Source of the DNA: a virus
DNA length: 64,000 nt
Strand: one strand, 5' to 3'
Virus record (IMG/VR): IMGVR_UViG_3300027644_000003
Coordinates: 1 to 64,000 of that record
Position numbers and translations under genes: made by a program. Shown here one piece after another: positions 784-61,769 of this stretch (its first letter is position 1; each line of letters opens with the position of its first letter). Below the pieces are notes generated by a model. The model did no database searches. It was not told the origin of the DNA and saw only the letters and a list, made by a program, of their open reading frames with translations.

Positions 784-2292
784 TTAGTCTATGTGATCAG
801 AGATTATTCTAGTGGTATTTTCCTCAGAAATCCCACCGTTCGGTATCTCTCTCAGAGTGTTAGCTTTATCACCAAACAATGCTGACAGTACACCGCCTGA
901 AGTTTGACGTTCTACGGTCATTCTTACAAATTCCTTGTTTTCTTCAAGTTCTTTCAAACTCTTAACAATCTTAAATAGTCTATCAATCTCTTGCCCAGTG
1001 TTAGGATCCGGGTACCCGCCATTTAGTTCTTCAGCAAATCGAGCAAATGCAACACGAGCACCTTGCATCTCAATGATGGCATTTAACAAACCCTTAAGTT
1101 GGTCTTTAGTCTTTACCTCTACTGGCAAATTGAAAGCACAAGTATTCTGTGGCTTAAATGCAGGGCAGTTAGCAGCAACAAAACATGTATCGCATTGTCT
1201 CAAAGATGCAGAGGTAGTTTCAAGCACTGGAACGTCTCTTATCAGGTCTCGTCCATCGTTATCTTTATCAATAACTGTCTTAGTATTTACTGAAAAAACC
1301 GGCAAAGTACGCGTTTCTGATGCATCTCTAACTATAACCTTAGTAGGTTCTAGAGCAGAATCTTTCCGCACCTCGAGTGCACTGTTATCAGGTTCTATGC
1401 CTAGTGTTTCCGCAGAACCTGGGTCATCTATGTGCGTGCTGTTATCAGATAACTTCTCGCCATCTACTACTGTTAGGTGTGGCGGTTTCTTTTTATCCAT
1501 TGATTTCTCCAGCTCCAGGTACGACCATATTGCGAGGCGAGTTACCTCATTACTATCATCATTAATAATCTTATCGAAGTCTAAGCCAGCCTTGTTTATA
1601 ACATTTTTATAACGAGGGCGTGCTTGGTCTTTCTGTTTCTTTTGGTATCGCACCAGTCTAGTGGTATCCCAAACTATTGTCTCACCACGCATCATTGGAG
1701 ATAGCCACGACAAAGTGCTTGCAGTCTCAAAAGGTATCTGACGTAAGTTATCAGGTTTAGCGCAAGCAATGCCGTGGAAATTGGTGCCCAGTTGGCCCTG
1801 TAGGGCCCGTGTGCGCCCTGCTAGGGTCGTATCGCTATCTATGGTGGTTCCTAGTATGGCAACGTTCTCCCAGTTATCACAGAGAGCAAACAAAGCCCTA
1901 TGCCCCATTTCAGGGTTCCATACTGGCCAGTATTTACTTCCTAGTTCCCATCCAATAGTCTTACGCTGTTCTTCAATCCAGCTAGATCCAAGCACTGGGG
2001 AATCAAACTCAACCACTCCCTCAATACGGTCATAGTTAGTTGCAATGAAGTCTTCATAGTCCGCGGCAAACTCTTCAGCTTCCCGGGTGGATAAGGTGGC
2101 GGTGGCGGCGGTTCCTGCAGTAAGGTAAATTTTTACGTCATCTGGGTACTTCTCTGATAATAGATAGGTTTTGCTTTTAGGTAGCCCACGTTTACGCAGG
2201 CCCCAAAAGCTGACACTGACATGCTTGACACCAGCATCAATTAACAATAATCTATGAGACGGTATTTCTCCGCCCATGAAAACTATGCTCAT
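784..2292 (-). CDS. TGT/DpdA-like TIM-barrel protein lacking the catalytic Asp residues, with a C-terminal four-Cys domain
   Basis: Motif order IVFMGG / IYLTAG / YEDFI / EFD / WPVWN / VAILG / FHGIA / PFETASTLSW follows phage TGT-like proteins (FLDSGAF, PVFH, HGFG, PxxSVDSxSW). C-terminal CDTCFVAANCPAFKPQNTC. Confidence 0.55.
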   Translation of the reverse strand: MSIVFMGGEIPSHRLLLIDAGVKHVSVSFWGLRKRGLPKSKTYLLSEKYPDDVKIYLTAGTAATATLSTREAEEFAADYEDFIATNYDRIEGVVEFDSPVLGSSWIEEQRKTIGWELGSKYWPVWNPEMGHRALFALCDNWENVAILGTTIDSDTTLAGRTRALQGQLGTNFHGIACAKPDNLRQIPFETASTLSWLSPMMRGETIVWDTTRLVRYQKKQKDQARPRYKNVINKAGLDFDKIINDDSNEVTRLAIWSYLELEKSMDKKKPPHLTVVDGEKLSDNSTHIDDPGSAETLGIEPDNSALEVRKDSALEPTKVIVRDASETRTLPVFSVNTKTVIDKDNDGRDLIRDVPVLETTSASLRQCDTCFVAANCPAFKPQNTCAFNLPVEVKTKDQLKGLLNAIIEMQGARVAFARFAEELNGGYPDPNTGQEIDRLFKIVKSLKELEENKEFVRMTVERQTSGGVLSALFGDKANTLREIPNGGISEENTTRIISDHID

Positions 2293-19396: not shown

Positions 19397-19703
19397 CCTG
19401 GTCTATCCAATCGTCTAGTGTTAAACCTTGTTTTTCATACTTACGCTTTGCTGCATTTCTTTCTCTGTGAGACATTCCCCCAAAGATTCCGTGCAACTCG
19501 TCGTTTATGATAGCTTCTTTAAGACATTCTTTGCGAACTGGACAAGCTGGTCGCCCGTCCTTTCCCCAACAAATTGCCTTAGCTTGAGTAGCTATCGGTT
19601 TGTATAAAGCCTTGTCTCGTGGAGGAAAAAAGATTTCTGTATCTTCTCCTCGGCACTTAGCCGAGTATCTCCAAGCCCAAGTAGGCTCGTCATCATGTTC
19701 CAT
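19374..19703 (-). CDS. whiB: WhiB-family transcription factor
   Basis: AKC...FFP...AKAIC...CPVRKECL...GIFGGMSHRER. Confidence 0.92.
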   Translation of the reverse strand: MEHDDEPTWAWRYSAKCRGEDTEIFFPPRDKALYKPIATQAKAICWGKDGRPACPVRKECLKEAIINDELHGIFGGMSHRERNAAKRKYEKQGLTLDDWIDQDGKYGQT

Positions 19704-29126: not shown

Positions 29127-29377
29127 AGTAATGCTCGTTTCCGTCGTCTTAAGTTCTTCCGGTCTTGAGGAGTTGTACCGCCCCAAACACCGTCCAAACT
29201 ACTGTCCGACATAGCATACTCTAGGCAAGCAGTAGTCAGCGGACAGCTCTGGCATACAGCCTTTGCCTTGTTCACGCTCAAACGGTGGTTGTAGTCCTCA
29301 GGAAAGAACAACTCTGGATCCTCTGACTTACATAATTGAGAGCCATTAAATGGTGCTGATCCCAAATAAAGATCCAT
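29123..29377 (-). CDS. whiB: WhiB-family transcription factor, second copy
   Basis: LCKSEDPELFFP...AKAVCQSCPLTTACLEYA...GVWGGTT..DR. Confidence 0.93.
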   Translation of the reverse strand: MDLYLGSAPFNGSQLCKSEDPELFFPEDYNHRLSVNKAKAVCQSCPLTTACLEYAMSDSSLDGVWGGTTPQDRKNLRRRKRALL

Positions 29378-51996: not shown

Positions 51997-52473
51997 TTAA
52001 GGCTGAATGAAGAAAAAGAAAGCGTTAGCCAGTACGTTATTAAATGGGTCTGGGAACTCTGAGCGTACAAACTCTTGGTCAGCCGCAAAGAATAGACCTT
52101 CGTTCTCTACCCCCTCAAAGGATTCCCCACCTACTGTGGTTTCCCAACCCAGGTGTTGATATGCAACTAGGCTTATTACGTAGTCTGCGTCATCTGTAAA
52201 TTTTTTAGGGGTTTGTGTTGGTTGAGGACCAGCATAGATATCTAAGTGCTGCCAGTTAGGGATTAACGCAGGGTTATTAAACATTTGCCTAGCTACGGGC
52301 AAAAGCTTTTCGTGAAGCATGCGAAGCTCAGGTGTATCTTTTAGTTGCAAGACTCCGTAGCCAGACTCATGAGGCGGTCTAGCTTTCTTTAAAGCTTCGT
52401 GGTGCTCTAAGGCGTATTTTTGCAGGTACTCAAAGTCTCGTTCTGAAAAAAGGTCTTGTATAACCTTATTCAC
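51997..52473 (-). CDS. 2OG-Fe(II) oxygenase-like fold lacking the HxD motif
   Basis: LLPVARQMF...LIPNW..LDIY.G...YVISLVAYQ..GW...VGG...ENEGLFF...R.EFP...FFFF matches phage 2OG oxygenases, but the iron-binding His residues are absent. Confidence 0.55.
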   Translation of the reverse strand: MNKVIQDLFSERDFEYLQKYALEHHEALKKARPPHESGYGVLQLKDTPELRMLHEKLLPVARQMFNNPALIPNWQHLDIYAGPQPTQTPKKFTDDADYVISLVAYQHLGWETTVGGESFEGVENEGLFFAADQEFVRSEFPDPFNNVLANAFFFFIQP

Positions 52474-52744
52474 TTTCAGGCCCCTTAATTTCTTCTACCT
52501 TACTCCATTTACCAATAGGGCATTCAGCAGGTGCAATCTTAACTTTAAGGTGCATAAAACATCCACACTTTTTACAGTTCTGAGTTAGTTTAATTAAGTG
52601 GGCACATCCGTTGCAAATCTCAAGGCGTTTCTTAGCAACTTCATCGGTAGTGCGAGGAACGTTTTTATCTAAAAGATCCCAAGGCCTAGTGTCCCCTAAG
52701 TTCTTTTTATACTTTTGCCACAGGGATAAGTTCTCTTCAGACAT
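52466..52744 (-). CDS. DUF6171-like Cys-cluster protein
   Basis: RLEICNGC...CKKCGCFM..K......CPIGKW. Confidence 0.8.
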   Translation of the reverse strand: MSEENLSLWQKYKKNLGDTRPWDLLDKNVPRTTDEVAKKRLEICNGCAHLIKLTQNCKKCGCFMHLKVKIAPAECPIGKWSKVEEIKGPESE

Positions 52745-52753
52745 ATTGTTCTC

Positions 52754-53239
52754 CTAGATTTCTGACCACATATTTAGGTCTTGGTTCTTAAGCATCGATT
52801 TTGGGGCGATATTGAATCCTATCATAAAGGTATTTTCATGACTATAAGTAATCTTTTTTCCTGCTTCCCAAAGGTAGATGTCTCCCGCAGCCAACAGATT
52901 AGATACCCCACCCACAGTTATAAAGCTGCCCTCTTCGGCGGTTAGTATAAATACGCCAGAGAAACAAGGGATCCTAACTCCTCCGGTGTCGTACCAAACG
53001 TCTGTTCGAACCTCGCTTATTAACTCGGATGATAGATAGAAAGTTGAGTGGGTCCGACTCAATTCATAGTAGCTGCAGGAATCTTCTAGTAACTTTTTGA
53101 TTTCTCTATGAGCATAGTTAATTGACATATCTTCAGCAATAGGTACATTTGAAGAAAATACTTTTACCGGCTTAGTCAATAAGCTTAAGAGCACCTGCTC
53201 CTCTCCCTTACTCATTAAATCCCCCAATTCTTTGACCAA
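52754..53239 (-). CDS. Cupin / 2OG oxygenase-like protein, degenerate
   Basis: WYDTGG...CFSGVFIL...GDIYLWEAG...IGFNIAP; no HxD. Confidence 0.45.
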   Translation of the reverse strand: MVKELGDLMSKGEEQVLLSLLTKPVKVFSSNVPIAEDMSINYAHREIKKLLEDSCSYYELSRTHSTFYLSSELISEVRTDVWYDTGGVRIPCFSGVFILTAEEGSFITVGGVSNLLAAGDIYLWEAGKKITYSHENTFMIGFNIAPKSMLKNQDLNMWSEI

Positions 53240-53717
53240 ACCATATTAACGGAAAAGCTGGGTCTCTGGGAGGCTCTGCCTCGTCGTAGTCAATTCTTCC
53301 GCCCTTGATTGCAGGGACGTAGGAAGATTCTCCTAGTTCAGCCCTAGTTTTGTCATAGATCCTATCGGTCTGCTTACTTCGATCCCCAGTCCCATCTATA
53401 TTGATGTCGAACTTAGAAGCAAAAAAGTGTTTTAAAAGTATGCCAAAAGGTACCCAATAGCCGTTACGTCTATGTATAGGGTTCGTGTACATTCTTTGAA
53501 CTTGGTAGCCATTATCAAAACAGGCATACATATCGGGGTAGGCATAGGGCATGTACTCAGAAAGTATTACTGTGCCGGTAGGGTGCTCATCGTTCTTATA
53601 TATTGAGACAATATAGGTAAACAAAGTACTTTCTGGCTCAACACAAACATGGACCCAGAAGCCAGTCAGCTTCTCTGGAAAATCAAAGTTTAGGATTTGT
53701 GCGCCGTTTAAGTTCAT
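53208..53717 (-). CDS. GNAT-like protein
   Basis: RMYTNPIHRRNGY resembles acetyl-CoA-binding motif A. Confidence 0.45.
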   Translation of the reverse strand: MNLNGAQILNFDFPEKLTGFWVHVCVEPESTLFTYIVSIYKNDEHPTGTVILSEYMPYAYPDMYACFDNGYQVQRMYTNPIHRRNGYWVPFGILLKHFFASKFDINIDGTGDRSKQTDRIYDKTRAELGESSYVPAIKGGRIDYDEAEPPRDPAFPLIWFGQRIGGFNE

Positions 53718-53719
53718 AG

Positions 53720-56074
53720 TTAGTCAACCGTATTGGAGTCGTGAGTCAACATCCTTTCGGTAAAGAATATATCATAAGGTTCACAGTCGATAGAAACCAC
53801 TTCGTGATTCACATCTACTTTTTTAAGGATGCTAATTGAGATCCAGTTGCGCTCAGCATATGACCATATGAGGTCTGTATCTTCAAGATCAAGTGCTTTA
53901 ACAAACGAGGTTACGTCTCCACGCTTGACCATAATGTAGTGAGTGTCTGAGAATATGTCTGAATCTACAATGACTGCCCACTTAGATATACGAGTACGGA
54001 TGTTTACAATCTCAGTTTCTACAAGGTTAACTTGTGGGTTTTGAGCAATCCATTCAATAAGGTCTATATCTGTTACAAGTAAGTTGTCGTACGGGAAGGT
54101 AGCGATGTCTGCAGAAAGCAGCTTATCTCCAACTTTAAGATCATGAGCAGCAACTAGCCCATCTTTTGTACGAACTAAAGTATTAATGTTAATACTTTTT
54201 AGTCCACTTTCGCCAAAGCCAGGGCCAAAGAAATCAAGATCAAGAGGTGGAAGTACCGTCTCTGTAGTACCTCCAGTTGAAGTGTCTGTTTCTACAAAAG
54301 TAGTACTTCCATCAGGGTTGTTAGTAAAGGTAATTTGTGTTCCAGTCTCTGGATTTACAGGCAACGTTGTGGTTTCAGGTTGCGTTGGAAGTGTGGTGCC
54401 GTTAGAAGCTGCTGGACCTGTAGGGCTTGTAACAGTCGGCTCAACACAAGGACCATAAATATCTGCGCAACCGCCTCTAGTAATGCAGTATGTTTGCGTA
54501 CCGTTGTTTCCGCAATTTTGTGTTCCAGAACCATAGATGCACTCGGTACAGTTAATTACAGGTTCAACTACCGTTGGCACACCGCAAAAATTTCTACCCG
54601 CACTACGTGGGGCACAGTTAGAGTAGGAACAAGGGTCATATTGGTTAACCATTAGAGTTCCATAACCATCTGCACCAACGTTTATACAATAGCTTGCATC
54701 ATCATCTATACAACAAGGTGTCCCAATAGCTGGAGCTACACAAGCCGTGTATCTGTCTGGACAGTTTGCTGGGGTCCTAAGAATTGTTCTAGTACCAGCT
54801 CTACCATCTGAAGTTGTGCATGGATCATCAGGTATTTCTCTAACAACTGGACAACTTGGTGTTCCCGGGTCAACCCAAATCTCTGGACACACAGCATATT
54901 GACCATTAGTTGTTATGCTGTTAGTACAATTTGTATTTGTAGGTGGGTCTACTAAATTAGTTGTTGAGTATTTATTACAACTAGTTACATTTCCGTTAGT
55001 CCTACATACTTCTGTTACATAGTAAGTAGTGGTTACTGGCCCACCGCCTGTTGGTCCGGTTACTCCTGTTGGTCCAGTTGGTCCAGTTGGAGCTTGAACA
55101 GTACACTGTACAAAGTTGTATATATTGTTGCAGCCTTCAGGAGTTACACATTTGTATCTAATTGCTTTACCTGAAGGACAGCCCGCTTCAGCGTATTCTT
55201 CTTCTCCACTACCAACTCCACAGTATGCGCCACCACATTTAGGAATTTCTCCAACACAGTCACCAATAACGGTGTCTTGAACTGGAGTACACCAACTTTG
55301 GAAAGTTCTAGAAGTTACTAATCTTTGTCCAGTACTTAAGTATCCACAACCCTCATAAGTAGCAGAGGTTGATTTTGGAATACTGCAATTTTCTGTAGTA
55401 GAGCAAGAAGGAAACGAAATTATTCCTGCAGCTTCACAAACCCACTCACCAACTCCAGCAACAACGGTGCCAGTAAAATCGGTATCTTTGAGTTCATTTA
55501 TACACGCTCCAGTAGAGAATGGGCGAAGAGTACAGTAGTACTTGACGTTAGGCTGTAAAGGGTTGCAGCATGAGTACGAAACTTTAACGGAACTATCACT
55601 ATAGCGCTTTGTTACACGTTTTGCGTAACCACTAGTACATCCAGAAATTCCACCCCAAAGTTCGCAGTCTCCTATTTGTTCACTAACTACTTGAATAATT
55701 GCATCTTCTTTAGTACACACTCCTGCTGGAGCTGTATAGGTAATGCATCCCGGATCTGTTTGACAGGTGTAGGGCGCAGTTCTAGTTCCTAAAGTAACGC
55801 CATCTGCTAAATAGCAAGGCTCTGTTGTAGGAAGAATAATGCCGTTAGTGCCGTTTAAACAATAGTTAGGCCGGTAACAAATAGTCTCTGGAATAGCTGC
55901 GGGCTGTTGTCCTGGAGCAGTACAGGTAGATCTCCATGTTCCGCTTATTCGAACATAAGATTGGTTTACTGTACGCCAAGTTCCGTTTACTTTTACATAT
56001 CCGCAAACACCATTAGAAGGAGAGTCTGTGGTGACTACCTTCCAAGCACCGGCAACTTTAGCGTATGTTGCCAT
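53720..56074 (-). CDS. Cys-rich tail-fibre adhesin-like protein with a C-terminal Hint domain
   Basis: N-terminal Y(A/V)KVxGxW repeats; about 46 Cys; short GPT run; C-terminal SININTLVRTKDG...DLKVGD...FSDTH...VVSIDCE...THD. Confidence 0.8.
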   Translation of the reverse strand: MATYAKVAGAWKVVTTDSPSNGVCGYVKVNGTWRTVNQSYVRISGTWRSTCTAPGQQPAAIPETICYRPNYCLNGTNGIILPTTEPCYLADGVTLGTRTAPYTCQTDPGCITYTAPAGVCTKEDAIIQVVSEQIGDCELWGGISGCTSGYAKRVTKRYSDSSVKVSYSCCNPLQPNVKYYCTLRPFSTGACINELKDTDFTGTVVAGVGEWVCEAAGIISFPSCSTTENCSIPKSTSATYEGCGYLSTGQRLVTSRTFQSWCTPVQDTVIGDCVGEIPKCGGAYCGVGSGEEEYAEAGCPSGKAIRYKCVTPEGCNNIYNFVQCTVQAPTGPTGPTGVTGPTGGGPVTTTYYVTEVCRTNGNVTSCNKYSTTNLVDPPTNTNCTNSITTNGQYAVCPEIWVDPGTPSCPVVREIPDDPCTTSDGRAGTRTILRTPANCPDRYTACVAPAIGTPCCIDDDASYCINVGADGYGTLMVNQYDPCSYSNCAPRSAGRNFCGVPTVVEPVINCTECIYGSGTQNCGNNGTQTYCITRGGCADIYGPCVEPTVTSPTGPAASNGTTLPTQPETTTLPVNPETGTQITFTNNPDGSTTFVETDTSTGGTTETVLPPLDLDFFGPGFGESGLKSININTLVRTKDGLVAAHDLKVGDKLLSADIATFPYDNLLVTDIDLIEWIAQNPQVNLVETEIVNIRTRISKWAVIVDSDIFSDTHYIMVKRGDVTSFVKALDLEDTDLIWSYAERNWISISILKKVDVNHEVVSIDCEPYDIFFTERMLTHDSNTVD

Positions 56075-56077
56075 GGC

Positions 56078-56359
56078 TTAAACGTACTTCAGCCAGACAT
56101 CCCCATCAGAACCACCAGTAGGTGTTCCAGTAGATGTAAATATATTTCGTACAACTCCAGAGCTAGTACTTGCAGTTGTAACTGCGCCGTTAGTTGCGCT
56201 TACTGCACCAATAGCTAAAGGTAGAACGGGGTCTAATCCGCCCTGAGCATGCTGGGTAGCGTGAAGAGATGCAGCAGCACCAATAGATGCAGGATCAGCT
56301 TGAGCTGTTCCAAAAGACTCCCAAGTGTTTGCTTGTTGATTCCATCTGCGTAAACCCAT
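56078..56359 (-). CDS. Short tail-fibre subunit
   Basis: HATQHAQGGLDP and VRNIFTSTGTPTGGSDGDVWLKY are fibre-type motifs. Confidence 0.7.
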   Translation of the reverse strand: MGLRRWNQQANTWESFGTAQADPASIGAAASLHATQHAQGGLDPVLPLAIGAVSATNGAVTTASTSSGVVRNIFTSTGTPTGGSDGDVWLKYV

Positions 56360-56952
56360 TAGTTAACTCCAAACACTAGTACGGTGCCGGCTGTAAAACC
56401 ACCGGCATCAATAATTAACTGAACAGAACTAATTGGCTGTACCTGTAACCAGGTTCCAACTTTAAGAACAGGGGTTATGTTATTGTTAACGAGTCTGTAC
56501 ACGCCGTTTGCTACGCATGTAGAGTATCCTTGCGTATCTTGAGTGTCTTCAAAGGTAAAAGAAAATTTATTTGTGGATATTCCAGATTTAATAAGTGGTA
56601 GTTCTATAATTTCTGTAGCCACTAGTCCAGCAGAATCAATATAACTAACGTTATCATTATTACAAGTTACTCTAAGAGTTGCATTTGCAGAAAGTACTAG
56701 TCCCCGTATTAAAATGTAAAGGTCTTTGTAGTCTGAGTTTACAGATAGGTTAACTGATCTTCCAACAATTGTTGCTAAGTTTAAAGTTTGTAACAGGTTT
56801 TTACCCGCGTTATTTTGAGTATCGGAGTCAATCCAAACATCTCCGTCAGTAGCATATGTTGGTAGAAACGGACCAATATGAATAGTTTTACCGGGACGAT
56901 TGTCCGTAAACTGAATTGCTCCTACGTCTACTCCGTTAAGTTTAACTGCCAT
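56359..56952 (-). CDS. Putative tail-fibre-associated protein
   Basis: P...DGDVWID; YKDLYILI...FTAGTVLVFGVN. Confidence 0.65.
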   Translation of the reverse strand: MAVKLNGVDVGAIQFTDNRPGKTIHIGPFLPTYATDGDVWIDSDTQNNAGKNLLQTLNLATIVGRSVNLSVNSDYKDLYILIRGLVLSANATLRVTCNNDNVSYIDSAGLVATEIIELPLIKSGISTNKFSFTFEDTQDTQGYSTCVANGVYRLVNNNITPVLKVGTWLQVQPISSVQLIIDAGGFTAGTVLVFGVN

Positions 56953-57287
56953 TAGTCGGTAATCTCCGATCCAAAGGCGTTAAATGATAGGTTATTGGTA
57001 GACGCAAAAATGTAAATAGCGTCACCAGTTCTTAAAGTAATTCCTAAAGTGTAGGTAATTGTAGATGTGGCGGGTATAGTGCTATCAAAAACAATATACT
57101 GCTTAGCGCTGTCTACGGCGCCATTTTCACGAACAGAAATTCTGTATGTGGATGAGCTACTTCCTCGGTTACAAATAGAGATAGTAGACACTACTGTTTG
57201 AATGCCTGTTCCAACAGGGCCGTAAAGCGGGGTAATTGTCGTGGTAACTGGCGCTGATTGAGCTAGGATCTTATACGTTGTTGCCAT
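56952..57287 (-). CDS. Small virion beta-sandwich protein homologous to the N-domains of the collagen fibres
   Basis: YKILAQSAP...VVSTISICN...YIVFD...LGITL..GD. Confidence 0.7.
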   Translation of the reverse strand: MATTYKILAQSAPVTTTITPLYGPVGTGIQTVVSTISICNRGSSSSTYRISVRENGAVDSAKQYIVFDSTIPATSTITYTLGITLRTGDAIYIFASTNNLSFNAFGSEITD

Positions 57288-58347
57288 CTAGGGTCTCCCG
57301 TGAATAAAAGGCTAAATTAGACTGAAGCCTAAGTTCGTCTGGATTTAATTCTACAGCTTTAGTGCCGTAAGTCAGGGCTTTCTCAAAGTTTCCTAGATTG
57401 TAGGCCGATATAGCAGCGTAGTCATAGGGCATATATCCCCAAGCAAACTCTTCACATAGATACTCTAAAGGTTTGTCTGTAATAGATAGGGCATTTTCTG
57501 CCATAACTAGACACTCTTCCCACCTGTTTTGTTGGTAGTAGAACTCCGCCAACTCTACATAGGCCTCTCTACGAGTAGGAGCTTCCTTAACTGCTTTCTT
57601 AAACCACTCTTCTTTTTCCCTAGGGTCAATCTCGAGTTTGGCTATGTAACGCATAGATGCGGCACGCTCTGGGGGCCAAACCGCTTTTGGTAAAGATAAG
57701 TGACGTTTGAACTCTTCTGTTGCTAATGAAGCTTGGCCATGAAAAAACAACTCTCGGGCGTAATAAAAAGCATTACGATCATCTGAAAGATCCTCTAGCA
57801 CAGCTTGTTGCAAAAGAGGCATATATTGAGAACGAGACTTTGAATCATCTGCATGGTGATGGATCTCTAATTTAACCCAACCTTGACGCTCTTCACTTTG
57901 ATTAGTTACTAGAACTTCGTGTACTGGATGCTTCCAACGATACCCTTTTCGTGTGTGGATTTTATCCCCACCATATTGAAGCCCTGGAGTACCATCTGCT
58001 TTCCAATTCCAAGTGTATTGGTAACGAGGGCGAGTCCAACCTTCTTGATGAGCTTTTTCTAATTCTGGGCGCCAACCCTCAATAAGGACTTCATCTAAGT
58101 CTAATGCAATGCAATAATCTATGTCTAAGGGTATAGCGGCTAAAGACGCATTACGAGCATCATCAAATCTCCAAGGTTTTACGCCAATATTTACTACGTT
58201 TATACCCAAAGACTTGGCAAGTTCAACAGTACTGTCGTTAGAACCAGTATCAGCAATAAGCAAGTAGTCAGCGTCTTTTGCCGATTCATACCAAGTTTTA
58301 ACAAACTTAACTTCGTTTAGAGCAATCGAATAGACTGCAACTTTCAT
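57271..58347 (-). CDS. GT2 glycosyltransferase with C-terminal TPR repeats
   Basis: VYSIALNE...DTGSND.T...PWRFDDARN...LDLDE...VHE, followed by TPR-like helices. Confidence 0.92.
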   Translation of the reverse strand: MKVAVYSIALNEVKFVKTWYESAKDADYLLIADTGSNDSTVELAKSLGINVVNIGVKPWRFDDARNASLAAIPLDIDYCIALDLDEVLIEGWRPELEKAHQEGWTRPRYQYTWNWKADGTPGLQYGGDKIHTRKGYRWKHPVHEVLVTNQSEERQGWVKLEIHHHADDSKSRSQYMPLLQQAVLEDLSDDRNAFYYARELFFHGQASLATEEFKRHLSLPKAVWPPERAASMRYIAKLEIDPREKEEWFKKAVKEAPTRREAYVELAEFYYQQNRWEECLVMAENALSITDKPLEYLCEEFAWGYMPYDYAAISAYNLGNFEKALTYGTKAVELNPDELRLQSNLAFYSRETLDGNNV

Positions 58348-58370
58348 ATTATGCTCCGATTTTGTAGGAA

Positions 58371-58544
58371 TTACTTAGTGGCTGCTACTTTTCTTTTTAG
58401 GTCGTCTAATGCATCTTGTATACGATCTTGTGTTCTAGTATCTAAAGATTTAATTTCTTCTAGACGAACAAGCTCTGCTTCTAGAAGTACTATGCCTTTT
58501 TCGTAGTCTGCAACGCTTGCCGCAGGGGTTGTTTCTTCAGTCAT
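58371..58544 (-). CDS. 57-aa coiled-coil protein
   Basis: Absent from the track: MTEETTPAASVADYEKGIVLLEAELVRLEEIKSLDTRTQDRIQDALDDLKRKVAATK; GAGGAG RBS. Confidence 0.75.
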   Translation of the reverse strand: MTEETTPAASVADYEKGIVLLEAELVRLEEIKSLDTRTQDRIQDALDDLKRKVAATK

Positions 58545-58547
58545 TTA

Positions 58548-58667
58548 TTACTCCTCTGTTGGGTAGACAAGATCGTAGCCAATTACAGCCCCAGTCTCAT
58601 CCTTTACTTCGAATTTTTCTGCCCCAGTTTCTGGGTCAAGTCCTAAACTTACTTTAGTTACGGTCAT
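58548..58667 (-). CDS. 39-aa acidic peptide
   Basis: Absent from the track: [39 protein letters not shown]; ATGA overlap with the fibre gene. Confidence 0.7.
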
Positions 58668-60139
58668 ACTAATCTTCCCCAAATTCCTACTGTGCTAGTT
58701 GAATAGGCAGTAGCGCTGGCTGGTAGGTCTGCAGTTGCTGCTACTAAACCTGTCATTCTTGGAGCTAATGTGCTCAAAGTTGCTGGAATAGAGTTAAAGG
58801 CTGTGTACACAGTACCTACTGTAGCAGCCACAATTACTACGCCTATTGCATAACGTGTTCCAGCGGTAAGCGTATAGCTTGCTGCGTATCCACCAGTAGT
58901 ATTAAATGATCGTGTATAAACAGTATTAACTGCGCTAAAGATTGTGGTGTCTGAGGCTGTTCTAGCAACAAGAGTTGCATTACCTGAACCGTCTACCGTG
59001 TATAGACCAAATCTAACTAAGCTCTGACCAGTTGTTTGTGTTGAGGCAGAAGCAATAGTAATAGAGCTAACTGAGGTAGTTGTTCGTGGAGTAAAGAAAG
59101 TAAAGTAAGTAGATCCACTAGAAGGTGTTCCCGTAAAGTTTCCAATACGTGGGTACACATCAACAGCAGTTGCTGATTGATTTACTGAGCCAATAAGAGG
59201 AATTTCATACGCAGAGGTATCAAATGAAACCGTAGAAGTTCCGACATCGTAAAGTACTGGAGAGGTTGCTGCCACTAGTCCTTTTGGACCTGTTGGACCT
59301 GTTCCACCAGTTGGACCTGTTACGGTCGATGGAGGTCCAGTTGGACCTGTTGGGCCCGTAACAGTGGACTGTGGACCAGTTGGACCGGTAGGCCCCGTAA
59401 CTGTAGATGGAACAGTAGAGGTTGGCCCGGTAGGACCTGTTGGTCCAAGAATGTTTCCAGTGTTAAGCCATTGAGTTCCAGACCATACCCAAAGATCTCC
59501 ACCAATTAGGTAAGCATCTCCAATAGATCCTGTTGGATACGCAGCAACAAGGGCCGCGTAAGTTGCAAAAGAACCAAGAATGTTAAGTCCAGCACCAATA
59601 GCTCCGGTAGGTCCTGTGGGACCTGTAGGTCCTATAAAACCAGTATTTCCAGTTTGACCGGTTGCACCTTGTGAACCTGTTGGTCCAGTAGCTCCAACAG
59701 AAATAGAAATTTTCCAGGTAGATCCATCCCAAAAAGCAATTGACTGGGTTACAGCATTAATCCAAATATCACCAATAGACGGAAATGCCGGAGGTCCAGC
59801 GTTATAAGTTACATACTGATTACCGTTGTTTTCGTACGCACCGTTTACGTAATAAGAAAGGTTATCACTACTACCAAGTACAGTTACAATATCGCCAATA
59901 TTAATAGCAAATCTAAATGTTTCAAAAGATTGACCCGCACCAACAGATATGTTTTTAACAATGTAAATTCCTGCGGAGGCAAGAGTTGCTCCATTAGGGA
60001 TTACAGCAACGCTAGAGGTTGCGTTAACTTCTCCTTTATTGGCAACAATAACGGATACAACATAACCACGTGCGGCAGTAACAAGATTTGTTTGTACATC
60101 CTTTAAAGGATTGGCGTTTCCTACGCGGACTACTGGCAT
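58664..60139 (-). CDS. Collagen-like (GPT repeat) tail fibre protein
   Basis: Interrupted (G-P-T)n runs, [13 protein letters not shown] knob, beta-rich C-terminal domain. Confidence 0.88.
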
Positions 60140-60149
60140 TTATTTACCC

Positions 60150-61769
60150 CTAACCAATAACCGTAATTGTGCCATTCATTGATGAATGGAGTGAACATAT
60201 ATAGTATAAAGTATTCGGGGCACCGGCCGGCACCGTAAATGTAATTATGCCCGCTCCTGTTCCCCCATTTGTTACTCCTGTTGAGTAAGTAAGGTTTGAG
60301 TTGTAAGCGCCTGGAGTTGTTTGAAAGTAGAATGGGTGGCTAGGAGCGTTTATAGTAAAGTAATACGTGTAACCCCGTACAAGGGTTATTGCTGGATTAT
60401 TACTAGTTCCATCAATTGTGTAAGTACCGCCTGATGGACTAGTTACTAAAAAGTTTTTTGCTACGGTCATGCCTGTTGCACCCGTTGCCCCCGTTGCCCC
60501 CGTTGGACCTGCAACAGTTGAGGCTGCTCCTGTAGGGCCAGTTGGTCCGGTAACAGTACTTGCGGCACCAGTTGCTCCGGTTGGTCCGGTTGGACCACCT
60601 GACGGACCTGTTGGGCCGGTAGGACCTGTTGCGCCAATAGCTGCGGCTTCACCAGGAATACCTTGAGAACCCGTAGGACCAGTAGGACCTGTTGGTCCCG
60701 CTACTGTGCTTGCCGCACCTGTAGGGCCAGTAGGACCCGGTATAACACTCGCAGCTCCTGTAGGACCAGTTGGCCCCGTAGGTCCTCCTGAAGGACCTGT
60801 AGGTCCGGTAGGACCATCAATACCTGCAGTACCTGTTGGACCAGTTGGACCAACACATCTAACTCCAGCAGGCCAAGCCCCACTTGTTTTTGGTCCATAA
60901 ATAGTGCTACTAGCAGTGTCTATGTAAAATTGTCCGTCAACGCCAATAATATTTGTTGGGGGTAGAAGGCCGGAAAGTATTCCAGAACCAGCTGGACCCG
61001 TTACACCTTGTGCACCAGTTGGGCCTGTAGGGCCACCTGAAGGACCTGTAGGTCCAGTAGGACCAACTAGGGGTCCAGCATTTTGCCAAACAGTGTTTGA
61101 CCAAACATATAATTCAGTTCCTACTACATAACCGTCACCGTTAGTACCACCTGTTCCATGTGCGGCTATAAATAGTGCGTATGTTGAGTAATAACCTTTT
61201 ATTACTAAACCGCTTCCAGTATTACCTGGAGCACCAGTTGGTCCAGTTGCACCTGAAGCTGCAGCCCAACCTGTTGGAGTTTTAAACTCAATATAGTTTA
61301 AGTCTGTGTTGTATCTCCAGTAACCTGTTTCTGCAGCAGCTGGGCGTTCTGCCGTAGTTCCAACTGCAGGATAAATAACATTATCGTTACCCCTAATAAT
61401 TTTATTAGTAAAGGTAATAGGTACATTGTTAATACTGTATTCGTTATTTTGATCCATACCTTGAATAACAAAAGAAGTGCCTGCGGTTGTTGATCTAACT
61501 AGTACGGTGTCTCCCGCATTTACGCCAAATTTAAAAGTTTCAAATGCCTGCCCTAAGCCTACCTCTAGGTTAGAGGTAATGTAGGCGTATCCACTTGGTT
61601 GAGATACTCCTTGAGGGACAACCCAAATATCTACTTTAGTTGCACTAGTAGTAGCAGCAGTTAAAGTATTTGAAGCAATAACGGATGCAAGGTATGACGT
61701 AGTTACGTTATACAAAACATACGAAGTATTAGCCGCAGGTGTGAAAGCACCAAGTCGAACAATCGCCAT
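60150..61769 (-). CDS. Collagen-like (GPT repeat) tail fibre protein with a cupredoxin-like C-terminus
   Basis: Extensive GPT/GAT triplets; C-terminal HPFYFQ...[11 protein letters not shown]. Confidence 0.88.

Follow-up and report, generated by a model that had tools for sequence, protein, structure and literature searches.

A lake phage of actinobacteria encodes a predicted protein O-glycosyltransferase of the SgtA/SunS/GmaR type, GT358, which probably glycosylates the phage's own collagen-like fibres. As a soluble enzyme of this class it would modify the Thr residues of their Gly-Pro-Thr (GPT) repeats, and the genes downstream of it would be separate from this activity. The window analysed here comprises positions 1 to 64,000 of the IMG/VR record IMGVR_UViG_3300027644_000003, a complete 99-kb myovirus genome. 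The record contains two WhiB genes, and the host is therefore probably an actinobacterium. GT358 and the fibres belong to a gene run at 51997-61769 that lies on the minus strand throughout, to which all coordinates below refer.

GT358 and its collagen-like neighbours

GT358 (57271..58347, 358 aa) matches the Pfam GT2 and TPR families and phrog_13126 (E 1e-117), which bears out the earlier description of a GT2-TPR enzyme, and no other GT2 match was obtained in the 99-kb genome. Its GT-A (GT2) catalytic domain occupies residues 1 to ~170 and a helical/TPR domain residues 175-357. The catalytic motifs are intact: DTGSxD, D62, D83-x-D85, H131, H143-E144 and H164 are invariant in the family, and the nucleotide-binding and DxD residues are among the invariant positions. 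When the AF2 model (pLDDT 96.8) was searched with Foldseek, the best matches were SunS and ThuS, aligned over the full length including both domains (E 1e-16). A profile of 66 sequences had its best catalytic-domain matches, among those listed, in the flagellin O-GlcNAc transferase domain of GmaR (E 7.6e-14) and in SunS (E 6e-12); the hits ranked above them were TPR proteins.

The two fibre genes precede the enzyme in the order of transcription. The product of col539 (60150..61769) consists of an N-terminal domain that it has in common with col491, GPT-rich G-X-Y runs within residues 173-435, and a distinct C-terminal head. It matches tail-fibre PHROGs at E 7e-27 to 2e-18, the C-terminus matching phrog_677. 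The second fibre, col491 (58664..60139), matches phrog_3904 (tail fibre, E 1e-25) and is a paralogue of col539 across the first ~260 residues (36% identity, E 9e-37). Counting only runs of at least three triplets, col539 has 48 G-X-Y triplets, 33 of them with Thr at Y and 28 with Pro at X; in col491 the count is 23, and 16 of these have Thr at Y. The earlier note had proposed two GPT-collagen fibres, and the Thr-rich triplets agree with this, though the runs are short (3-11 triplets) and the Pfam Collagen scores of the two proteins, 24.5 and 21.3, fall below the gathering score of 27.2.

A comparable pair is known from Clostridioides difficile, in which SgtA, a protein of 358 aa with a GT-A domain and four TPRs, is encoded by a gene adjoining bclA3; in vitro it transfers beta-O-GlcNAc onto Thr of GPT repeats, and BclA3 is its exosporium substrate (PMC7157674). 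GT358 resembles SgtA, as described in that publication, in its length, in its N-terminal GT-A domain and C-terminal TPRs, and in the position of its gene beside a Gly-Pro-Thr-rich collagen-like gene. The two systems differ in that one belongs to a phage tail-fibre cassette and the other to a spore coat, in that the order here is collagen and then enzyme, and in that the collagen runs of the window are much shorter and interrupted. In Listeria GmaR, a flagellin O-GlcNAc transferase, TPRs likewise follow a GT2 catalytic domain, and the sugar is added to Ser/Thr of a protein that forms a surface filament. The substrate is flagellin, however, and at 637 aa GmaR carries additional linker and antirepressor domains (PMC9638930). 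The glycocin S-glycosyltransferases SunS and ThuS (PDB 7msn, 7msk), the best whole-chain structural matches, combine a GT-A domain with a helical, TPR-like substrate-binding domain, but the sequence identity is only 14-16%, and their targets are Cys/Ser residues in small disulfide-stapled peptides, of a kind that is not encoded here.

Linkage of the enzyme to collagen genes

We compared gene neighbourhoods in an enzyme-selected set of 59 viral loci with enough flank, an enzyme-independent set of 34 loci picked through the unrelated gene p192, and a set of 80 bacterial loci, mostly from Clostridia, that hold a GT358 homologue with 41-60% identity. In 44 of the 59 loci of the first set, a collagen ORF on the same strand precedes the enzyme by no more than 6 kb, usually by 120-520 bp; nearby collagen is missing from 15. 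Homologues of col491 lie directly 5' of the enzyme in most related loci and are almost always the preceding gene. Among the p192-selected loci, a GPT collagen is found in 16 of 20 with the enzyme and in 0 of 14 without it, counts that are inflated by co-inheritance of neighbouring genes and require 2-3 independent changes on the tree. In the other 4 loci with the enzyme, the upstream position is taken by Thr/Gly-rich fibres that are not collagens.

The sister phages L105 and L111 are ~83% identical in their downstream DNA, and divergence begins exactly at the junction between the enzyme and p111. The collagen, m44 and the enzyme therefore move together, and in this one pair collagen and enzyme have been swapped as a single cassette. 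In the bacterial set, 53 of the 80 loci have a collagen-like ORF within 6 kb of the homologue, and 39 of these ORFs end at most 600 bp upstream on the same strand. Thr occupies 69% of their Y positions, equal to the value in the window. Clostridial homologues with 41-47% identity sit directly after GPT-rich collagen genes.

It is conceivable, though unlikely, that the target of GT358 is something else, namely another virion protein, a host surface protein or polymer (in superinfection exclusion), or phage DNA, and that its position beside the fibres reflects regional plasticity. Many fibres with GPT repeats have no such enzyme. About a quarter of the related loci place the enzyme at a distance from collagen genes, beside replication genes or a halogenase. 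In one lineage its neighbours are an exonuclease, a kinase and a primase, or it follows the halogenase; the two large records of this lineage have GPT collagens elsewhere. For the homologues in jumbo phages (27-35% identity), no fibre gene is an obvious neighbour. The literature on freshwater actinophages and pelagiphages takes such enzymes as modifiers of DNA or the host surface (PMC10202952; PMC7029224), and glycosylation of virion capsid and tail-tube proteins is known from mycobacteriophages (Freeman et al. 2023, as cited in PMC12619734). Against this reading, the fold and profile indicate peptide or protein glycosyltransferases and not DNA or wall enzymes, the adjacency to collagen recurs in distant bacteria and phages, and the cassette swap kept the enzyme with the collagens. 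We thus favour the fibres as substrate. The earlier proposal that the enzyme would act on them as SgtA does on BclA3 finds strong support in the predicted fold, the profile and the gene neighbourhood.

The remaining genes of the run

A broader proposal held that all 14 genes form one fibre-maturation system, in which the Hint domain would add autoprocessing to glycosylation, cysteines would stabilise the fibre, and GNAT, cupin, DUF6171 and 2OG proteins would tailor it. The layout of the run is in its favour: every ORF is present as described, the genes share one orientation and follow each other closely, with no gap or overlap longer than ~30 nt, and a scan for promoter and terminator signals gave none above chance. 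We nevertheless consider the proposal very unlikely on the evidence of the genes themselves, whose presence was counted over 81 related loci.

The three small proteins that follow the enzyme had been described as fibre subunits. Faint tail-fibre matches were obtained for p111 (56952..57287; phrog_11338, E 8e-5), from which a structural role is inferred, and for p93 (56078..56359; phrog_14064, a tail-fibre C-terminus, E 1e-3). However, p111 has no similarity to the fibres by BLAST, and p197 (56359..56952) has no family match in Pfam, PHROG or NCBIfam. They occur in 39 (p111), 36 (p197) and 35 (p93) of the 81 loci, and all three persist in phages that have neither the enzyme nor collagens.

The next gene, cys784 (53720..56074), encodes a variable, Cys-rich fibre protein (47 Cys in 784 aa), which is likely the receptor binder. 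A conserved N-terminal anchor of 51 aa is followed by a short GPT run at 331-342, a Thr/Pro-rich linker and a C-terminal Hint/BIL-like domain at ~615-784; in more distant relatives conservation is confined to the N-terminus. The Hint domain that the earlier note had recognised is real but non-canonical. Its profile matches a solved bacterial intein-like domain (E 1.3e-5), and 8 of 9 family members match Pfam Hint_2, every one below threshold. While the domain starts with Cys and ends with His-Asn in homologues L021 and L015, the window copy has Ser1 and a terminal His-Asp.

Two orphans follow, both confined to the closest relatives and without a match in Pfam, PHROG or NCBIfam. The GNAT label given to p169 (53208..53717) is a lead only, drawn from language-model neighbours (nearest clusters GNAT, with a very high score), and the cupin label of p161 (52754..53239, likely starting at the ATG at residue 9) is not borne out by the Atlas, where its neighbours are viral clusters without a name and a single, weak cluster of 2OG type. 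The small Cys-cluster protein DUF6171 (52466..52744) was correctly named (PF19668, 30.0 bits against a cut-off of 27, E 7e-7; phrog_13558, E 4e-17). It is represented by 83 ORFs in related loci and is found upstream of p192 in phages lacking both enzyme and collagens; its linkage is to this conserved downstream gene and not to the glycosyltransferase. Finally, p158 (51997..52473) has the 2OG-Fe(II)-oxygenase fold suggested for it: its AF2 model (pLDDT 92) matches 2OG oxygenases including the PBCV-1 collagen prolyl hydroxylase and bacterial P4H, and 5 of 14 family members match 2OG-FeII_Oxy_2 weakly. However, the H-x-D and distal His retained in homologues are replaced by K/F and F in the window copy, which is probably catalytically dead.

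Thus the Hint domain and the prolyl-hydroxylase-like fold lend the broader proposal some substance, but the restricted range of p169 and p161, the persistence of DUF6171, p111, p197 and p93 where enzyme and collagens are lacking, the unverified GNAT and cupin labels, the lost iron ligands and the cassette breakpoint after the enzyme argue against it, as does a phage subgroup in which p192 comes straight after the enzyme. The neighbourhood comparison upheld the collagen-enzyme pair and not the accessory genes; p111, p197, p93, cys784, p169, p161, DUF6171 and p158 are ordinary, variable members of a fibre/neck module and not one maturation machine.

The two micro-ORFs between col491 and the enzyme both exist. 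One of them, m57 (58371..58544), predicted to be helical, had no match in family searches and occurs in 8 of the 81 loci, all in close relatives. The other, m44 (58548..58664), is acidic and comprises 39 aa from its true ATG, which overlaps the col491 stop (ATGA) and couples its translation to that of the fibre. It is retained at this position between fibre and enzyme in 49 of the 81 loci; our guess is that it is a fibre assembly factor. That m44 is itself the substrate, as sublancin is of SunS, is suggested by its position and by the small, nearby-encoded peptides that SunS and ThuS glycosylate, but is extremely improbable given its lack of Cys and leader-like features, its coupling to col491, its absence wherever the enzyme does not adjoin a col491-type fibre, and the failure of tblastn to detect it in phage DSL-LC01, whose collagen genes sit upstream of the enzyme.

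A proposed model for fibre glycosylation

Glycosylation of the fibres by GT358 would proceed during late gene expression. The GT-A domain, with its DxD metal site, would catalyse the reaction while the TPR domain holds the protein substrate, and sugar would be moved from a host UDP-sugar onto Thr, perhaps Ser. We infer that the acceptor sites are the Y positions of the Gly-Pro-Thr repeats in col539 and col491; further GPT or Thr-rich stretches of the genome may be additional targets. Mycobacteriophages, as cited in PMC12619734, offer a precedent for this role: in actinobacterial hosts they encode glycosyltransferases that act on their own virion proteins, although the sites modified there lie at the C-termini of the capsid and tail-tube subunits and not in collagen-like fibres. 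The earlier note had regarded the system as a candidate for an undescribed one. The enzyme-substrate pair is, however, known from C. difficile spores (PMC7157674), and what is new here is only its phage tail-fibre setting. The outcome would be a virion with sugar-coated fibres, and the sugars may benefit the phage through fibre stability, solubility, protease resistance or contact with the host surface.

The fibre genes and the enzyme GT358

The virus record is 99,469 bp long and rated complete, the window being its first 64 kb. Two WhiB-family genes (window 19452-19673 and 29150-29338), both scoring above the Pfam cut-off, point to an actinobacterial host, and the T4-type tail tube, tail sheath and baseplate protein, whose genes lie a short way downstream on the strand of the region, indicate a myovirus. 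Among named phages the nearest is DSL-LC01, a freshwater phage of Actinomycetia; its glycosyltransferase shares 65% identity with that of the window. A megablast search of GenBank phages with the region, at the DNA level, gave no match. Every ORF listed in the earlier note was found on the minus strand between 51997 and 61769, tightly packed as described. Promoter and terminator scans of the region gave no signal above chance.

The run opens with two collagen-like tail fibres, col539 (60150-61769) and col491 (58664-60139), which are paralogous across their first ~260 residues. They contain 48 and 23 G-X-Y triplets, respectively, with Pro at X and Thr in ~70% of the Y positions. Both fibres match tail-fibre PHROGs strongly, and the C-terminal ~100 residues of col539 (window 60150-60450) match phrog_677, "baseplate wedge tail fiber protein connector" (E 9e-20). 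The scores against Pfam Collagen (PF01391) were 24.5 and 21.3 bits, just below the cut-off of 27.2, with G-X-Y runs only 3-11 triplets long, and NCBIfam Scl2/Lcl matches fell far under their cut-offs. Two micro-ORFs follow. The start ATG of m44 (58548-58664) overlaps the col491 stop, and its 39-aa product is kept in 49 related loci; m57 (58371-58544) was found in only 8. We considered m44 as a glycocin-like substrate of the enzyme and rejected it, because it lacks Cys, because its translation is coupled to that of the fibre, and because it went undetected at the enzyme-collagen locus of DSL-LC01.

The enzyme itself, GT358 (57271-58347), is a protein of 358 aa with GT2 and TPR matches, as had been proposed, and matches phrog_13126 end to end. 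Its Pfam GT2 score is 21.1 bits, slightly under the cut-off of 23.3, and its TPR_2 score of 40.1 bits is over the cut-off. The AF2 model (pLDDT 96.8) has a GT-A fold with a DxGSxD-like nucleotide-binding motif and a DxD metal site, fused to a C-terminal TPR/helical-repeat domain, residues 175-357 being helical. Among 66 homologues of GT358, D33-T-G-S-x-D38, D62, D83-x-D85 and several His are invariant. In the PDB its fold is best matched, over both domains, by SunS and ThuS (E 1e-16), which are S-glycosyltransferases of glycocins. The profile built from the 66 homologues detected the catalytic domain of GmaR (E 7.6e-14) and SunS (E 6e-12), the best catalytic-domain matches among the matches listed for it, TPR proteins ranking higher; homology to characterised enzymes is therefore detectable by profile. 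A weak TPR_P4H match of the TPR domain (22.2 bits, under the cut-off) was set aside as a sign of collagen binding, since TPR families cross-match.

Two characterised enzymes are instructive here. SgtA of C. difficile has 358 aa, a GT-A domain followed by four TPRs, and a gene beside bclA3; in vitro it puts beta-O-GlcNAc on Thr of the BclA3 GPT repeats (PMC7157674). It fits GT358 closely in size and architecture, the comparison resting on the published description of SgtA and not on an alignment. GmaR, the O-GlcNAc transferase of Listeria flagellin, has a GT domain and then TPRs (PMC9638930), the same order as in GT358. Profile matches and the predicted model place GT358 in the class of SgtA/SunS/GmaR-type GT2-TPR enzymes, as a predicted protein glycosyltransferase with its active-site motifs intact.

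Linkage of the enzyme to collagen genes

To follow the gene neighbourhood, we used the enzyme to retrieve 80 viral loci (65-90% identity), 59 of which have at least 2.5 kb of upstream sequence. In 44 of these 59 enzyme-selected loci, the 6 kb upstream of the enzyme hold a collagen ORF on the same strand; most of these ORFs stop 120-520 bp short of the enzyme, m44 lying in between. The window conforms to this pattern, as col491, a Gly-X-Thr collagen gene, ends 317 nt upstream of GT358. Independently of the enzyme, we fetched loci through p192, a conserved downstream gene, and kept the 34 with at least 7 kb of upstream sequence. The enzyme was present in 20 of them, with a GPT collagen directly before it in 16, while none of the 14 p192-selected loci lacking the enzyme had a GPT collagen. 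For the enzyme and the collagens, the co-occurrence check that the earlier note had called for comes out in favour of linkage in both sets of loci, and this linkage is at the level of a cassette. On the p192 tree, the presence and absence of the enzyme requires 2-3 changes, so that these counts reflect few independent events. In the four enzyme-positive loci lacking a collagen, large Gly/Thr-rich fibre proteins precede the enzyme.

One exchange of the cassette can be followed at the DNA level. The related loci L105 and L111 are ~83% identical from p111 onward, and the similarity vanishes exactly at the enzyme/p111 junction. At this site L105 carries collagen, m44 and enzyme; L111 (343-6581) carries a row of 220-250-aa paralogues and a short-chain-dehydrogenase-like gene. 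Several of these paralogues have recurring H-x-D motifs, recognised by eye, and are apparently 2OG-Fe(II)-oxygenase-like.

The pair is also found in bacteria. When one genome of each species was scanned with a 12-sequence alignment as query, at least 560 GT358 homologues came up. The best 80 of them are 41-60% identical over the full length and come mostly from Clostridia and other Bacillota, plus Nanopelagicales and a few others. A collagen-like ORF lies within 6 kb of the enzyme in 53 of these 80 loci; in 39 loci a collagen ORF on the same strand ends no more than 600 bp upstream of it. The bacterial collagen ORFs have Thr at 69% of Y and Pro at 51% of X, a make-up equal to that of the window. 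The arrangement is that of SgtA and BclA, and it shows the enzyme-collagen pair to be old and mobile.

Members of the family are met very often in aquatic phages and in giant viruses; there are 878 clusters at E below 1e-30, and some members are fused to methyltransferases or to extra glycosyltransferase domains. Among metagenomic relatives (P0121, P0128, P0131, P0153, P0249) we saw tandem duplications or triplications, and in others methyltransferase or glycosyltransferase fusions. Such duplicated and fused forms suggest that other viruses or bacteria make glycans that are longer or methylated. In the phage genome GT358 is the sole GT2 match, and an examination of that genome for glycan-extending genes found no further glycosyltransferase or sugar-synthesis gene.

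The downstream genes of the fibre module

The earlier note had read the whole run as a candidate fibre-maturation system, which the distribution of the downstream genes does not support. The genes p169 and p161 are restricted to the closest relatives; DUF6171, p111, p197 and p93 are also retained in phages that have neither the enzyme nor collagens; and in one phage subgroup p192 directly follows the enzyme. Given this patchy distribution, we read the run as a fibre module whose tail is variable, and not as one conserved system. The DUF6171-like gene (52466-52744) is a true Pfam match (PF19668, 30.0 bits against a gathering cut-off of 27), as suggested; it was discarded as a partner of the enzyme because it is also present in phages lacking the enzyme. 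The idea that p111 is a copy of the N-terminal domain of the fibres was likewise dropped, as the two have no BLAST similarity and only a weak PHROG in common.

The Cys-rich protein cys784 (53720-56074) has 784 aa and 47 Cys. Its N-terminal 51 residues are conserved in many relatives and its body is variable, as expected of a putative receptor binder on a common adaptor. Canonical Hint and BIL domains have an N-terminal Cys or Ser nucleophile and a C-terminal His-Asn. The C-terminal domain of cys784 is homologous to domains in loci L021 and L015 that start with Gly-Gly-Gly-Gly-Cys and end in Thr-His-Asn, but in the clade of the window position 1 is Ser and His-Asp stands in place of the terminal His-Asn, the window copy itself ending in His-Asp-Ser-Asn-Thr-Val-Asp. 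A profile of this region matched the solved bacterial intein-like (BIL) domain 2lwy (E 1.3e-5) over its first ~43 positions only, and 8 of 9 members matched Pfam Hint_2, the best at E 5.6e-4 and all under the cut-off. On the strength of the homologous domain ends and these matches the proposed Hint assignment is kept, in an amended form: the tail is a putative Hint-like domain that appears to have lost the terminal Asn chemistry. With Ser at position 1 and a terminal His-Asp, splicing-type chemistry at the C-terminus is unlikely in the window copy; N-terminal cleavage is possible.

The 2OG-oxygenase proposed for p158 (51997-52473) fared similarly. The fold, which had no initial profile support, is borne out by prediction: the AF2 model (pLDDT 92) is a double-stranded beta-helix, and Foldseek aligned it at TM 0.6-0.72 to EctD, prolyl hydroxylases and vCPH of PBCV-1, a chlorovirus collagen P4H. 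The H-x-D...H iron triad, on the other hand, is absent. At the alignment positions taken by HKD and a distal His in its homologues, the window copy has K/F and F, and it lacks the C-terminal ~25 residues. With the ligands lost and the protein shortened in the window clade, this copy is probably inactive. Homologues in three related loci (L013:6510-7094, L015:5367-5900, L021:8368-8901) keep the triad and share the fibre module with the collagens and the enzyme, which makes collagen hydroxylation a possibility in those phages. A jackhmmer search from p158 made no connection to the oxygenase-like paralogues of L111.

Two further assignments were not supported. The GNAT-like p169 has no Acetyltransf profile match and gave no match in Pfam, PHROG or NCBIfam at E 0.1 or better; GNAT clusters turn up only as its language-model neighbours, which keeps this identity as a lead. 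For p161, described as cupin-like, no match was found in Pfam, PHROG or NCBIfam, and its Atlas neighbours are unnamed clusters plus one weak 2OG cluster.

Proposed reaction and its implications

From these observations we infer the substrate of GT358, its sugar and its benefit. Freshly synthesised col491 and col539 would be held by the TPR domain along their extended Gly-Pro-Thr stretches, and the catalytic domain would move a single sugar from a host UDP-sugar to Thr, as SgtA does on BclA3. We consider it reasonably probable that GT358 glycosylates Thr in the GPT repeats of the two fibres in this SgtA-like manner. More Gly-Pro-Thr repeat genes occur in the same genome, at 70885-72439 of the virus record (outside the window) and at window 1788-1807, so the substrates of GT358 could extend beyond the two adjacent fibres.

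The main alternative is that the target lies elsewhere, in other virion proteins, on the host surface or in DNA. Glycosyltransferases of freshwater actinophages have been read as DNA or wall modifiers (PMC10202952), and modification of DNA or of the wall and host surface is the usual reading of such enzymes in the literature (PMC10202952, PMC7029224). This reading and the loci with the enzyme among replication genes speak for the alternative. In the 15 of 59 enzyme-selected loci without a nearby collagen, the enzyme follows a halogenase or lies beside an exonuclease, a kinase and a primase. The two large records of this non-collagen lineage contain many GPT repeats elsewhere. With the cassette-level linkage to GPT collagens set beside these loci, we regard a target other than the fibres as unlikely.

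In DSL-LC01-like phages the collagen block closes with a "tryptophan halogenase" of 520 aa (L048:5680-7242 and L001:8433-10004; phrog_2928, E 2e-106), and the glycosyltransferase comes immediately after it. This halogenase may be a second tailoring enzyme.

A wider scheme, in which phages of freshwater actinobacteria would mature their fibres like an extracellular matrix, by GPT O-glycosylation through the SgtA-like enzyme, by prolyl hydroxylation through the intact P4H-like 2OG oxygenases of the relatives, and by a Hint domain through which the Cys-rich receptor binder cleaves itself or is attached, with a partly degenerate version in the window phage, strikes us as quite improbable.

The view of the run as an undescribed system needs qualification. 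The enzyme-substrate pair is already known from C. difficile spores; virion glycosylation is known as well, from mycobacteriophage capsids and tail tubes (Freeman et al. 2023, as cited in PMC12619734). Among the papers we found, none proposes that collagen-like fibres of phages are glycosylated by a phage SgtA-like enzyme. If the SgtA-like glycosylation of col491 and col539 is true, virion glycosylation would reach beyond mycobacteriophage capsids and tail tubes to the fibres of host recognition, and the GT358 family, usually annotated as DNA or cell-wall modifiers, would gain a concrete function. It would also tie phage fibres to the glycosylation of spore-coat collagens in Firmicutes.
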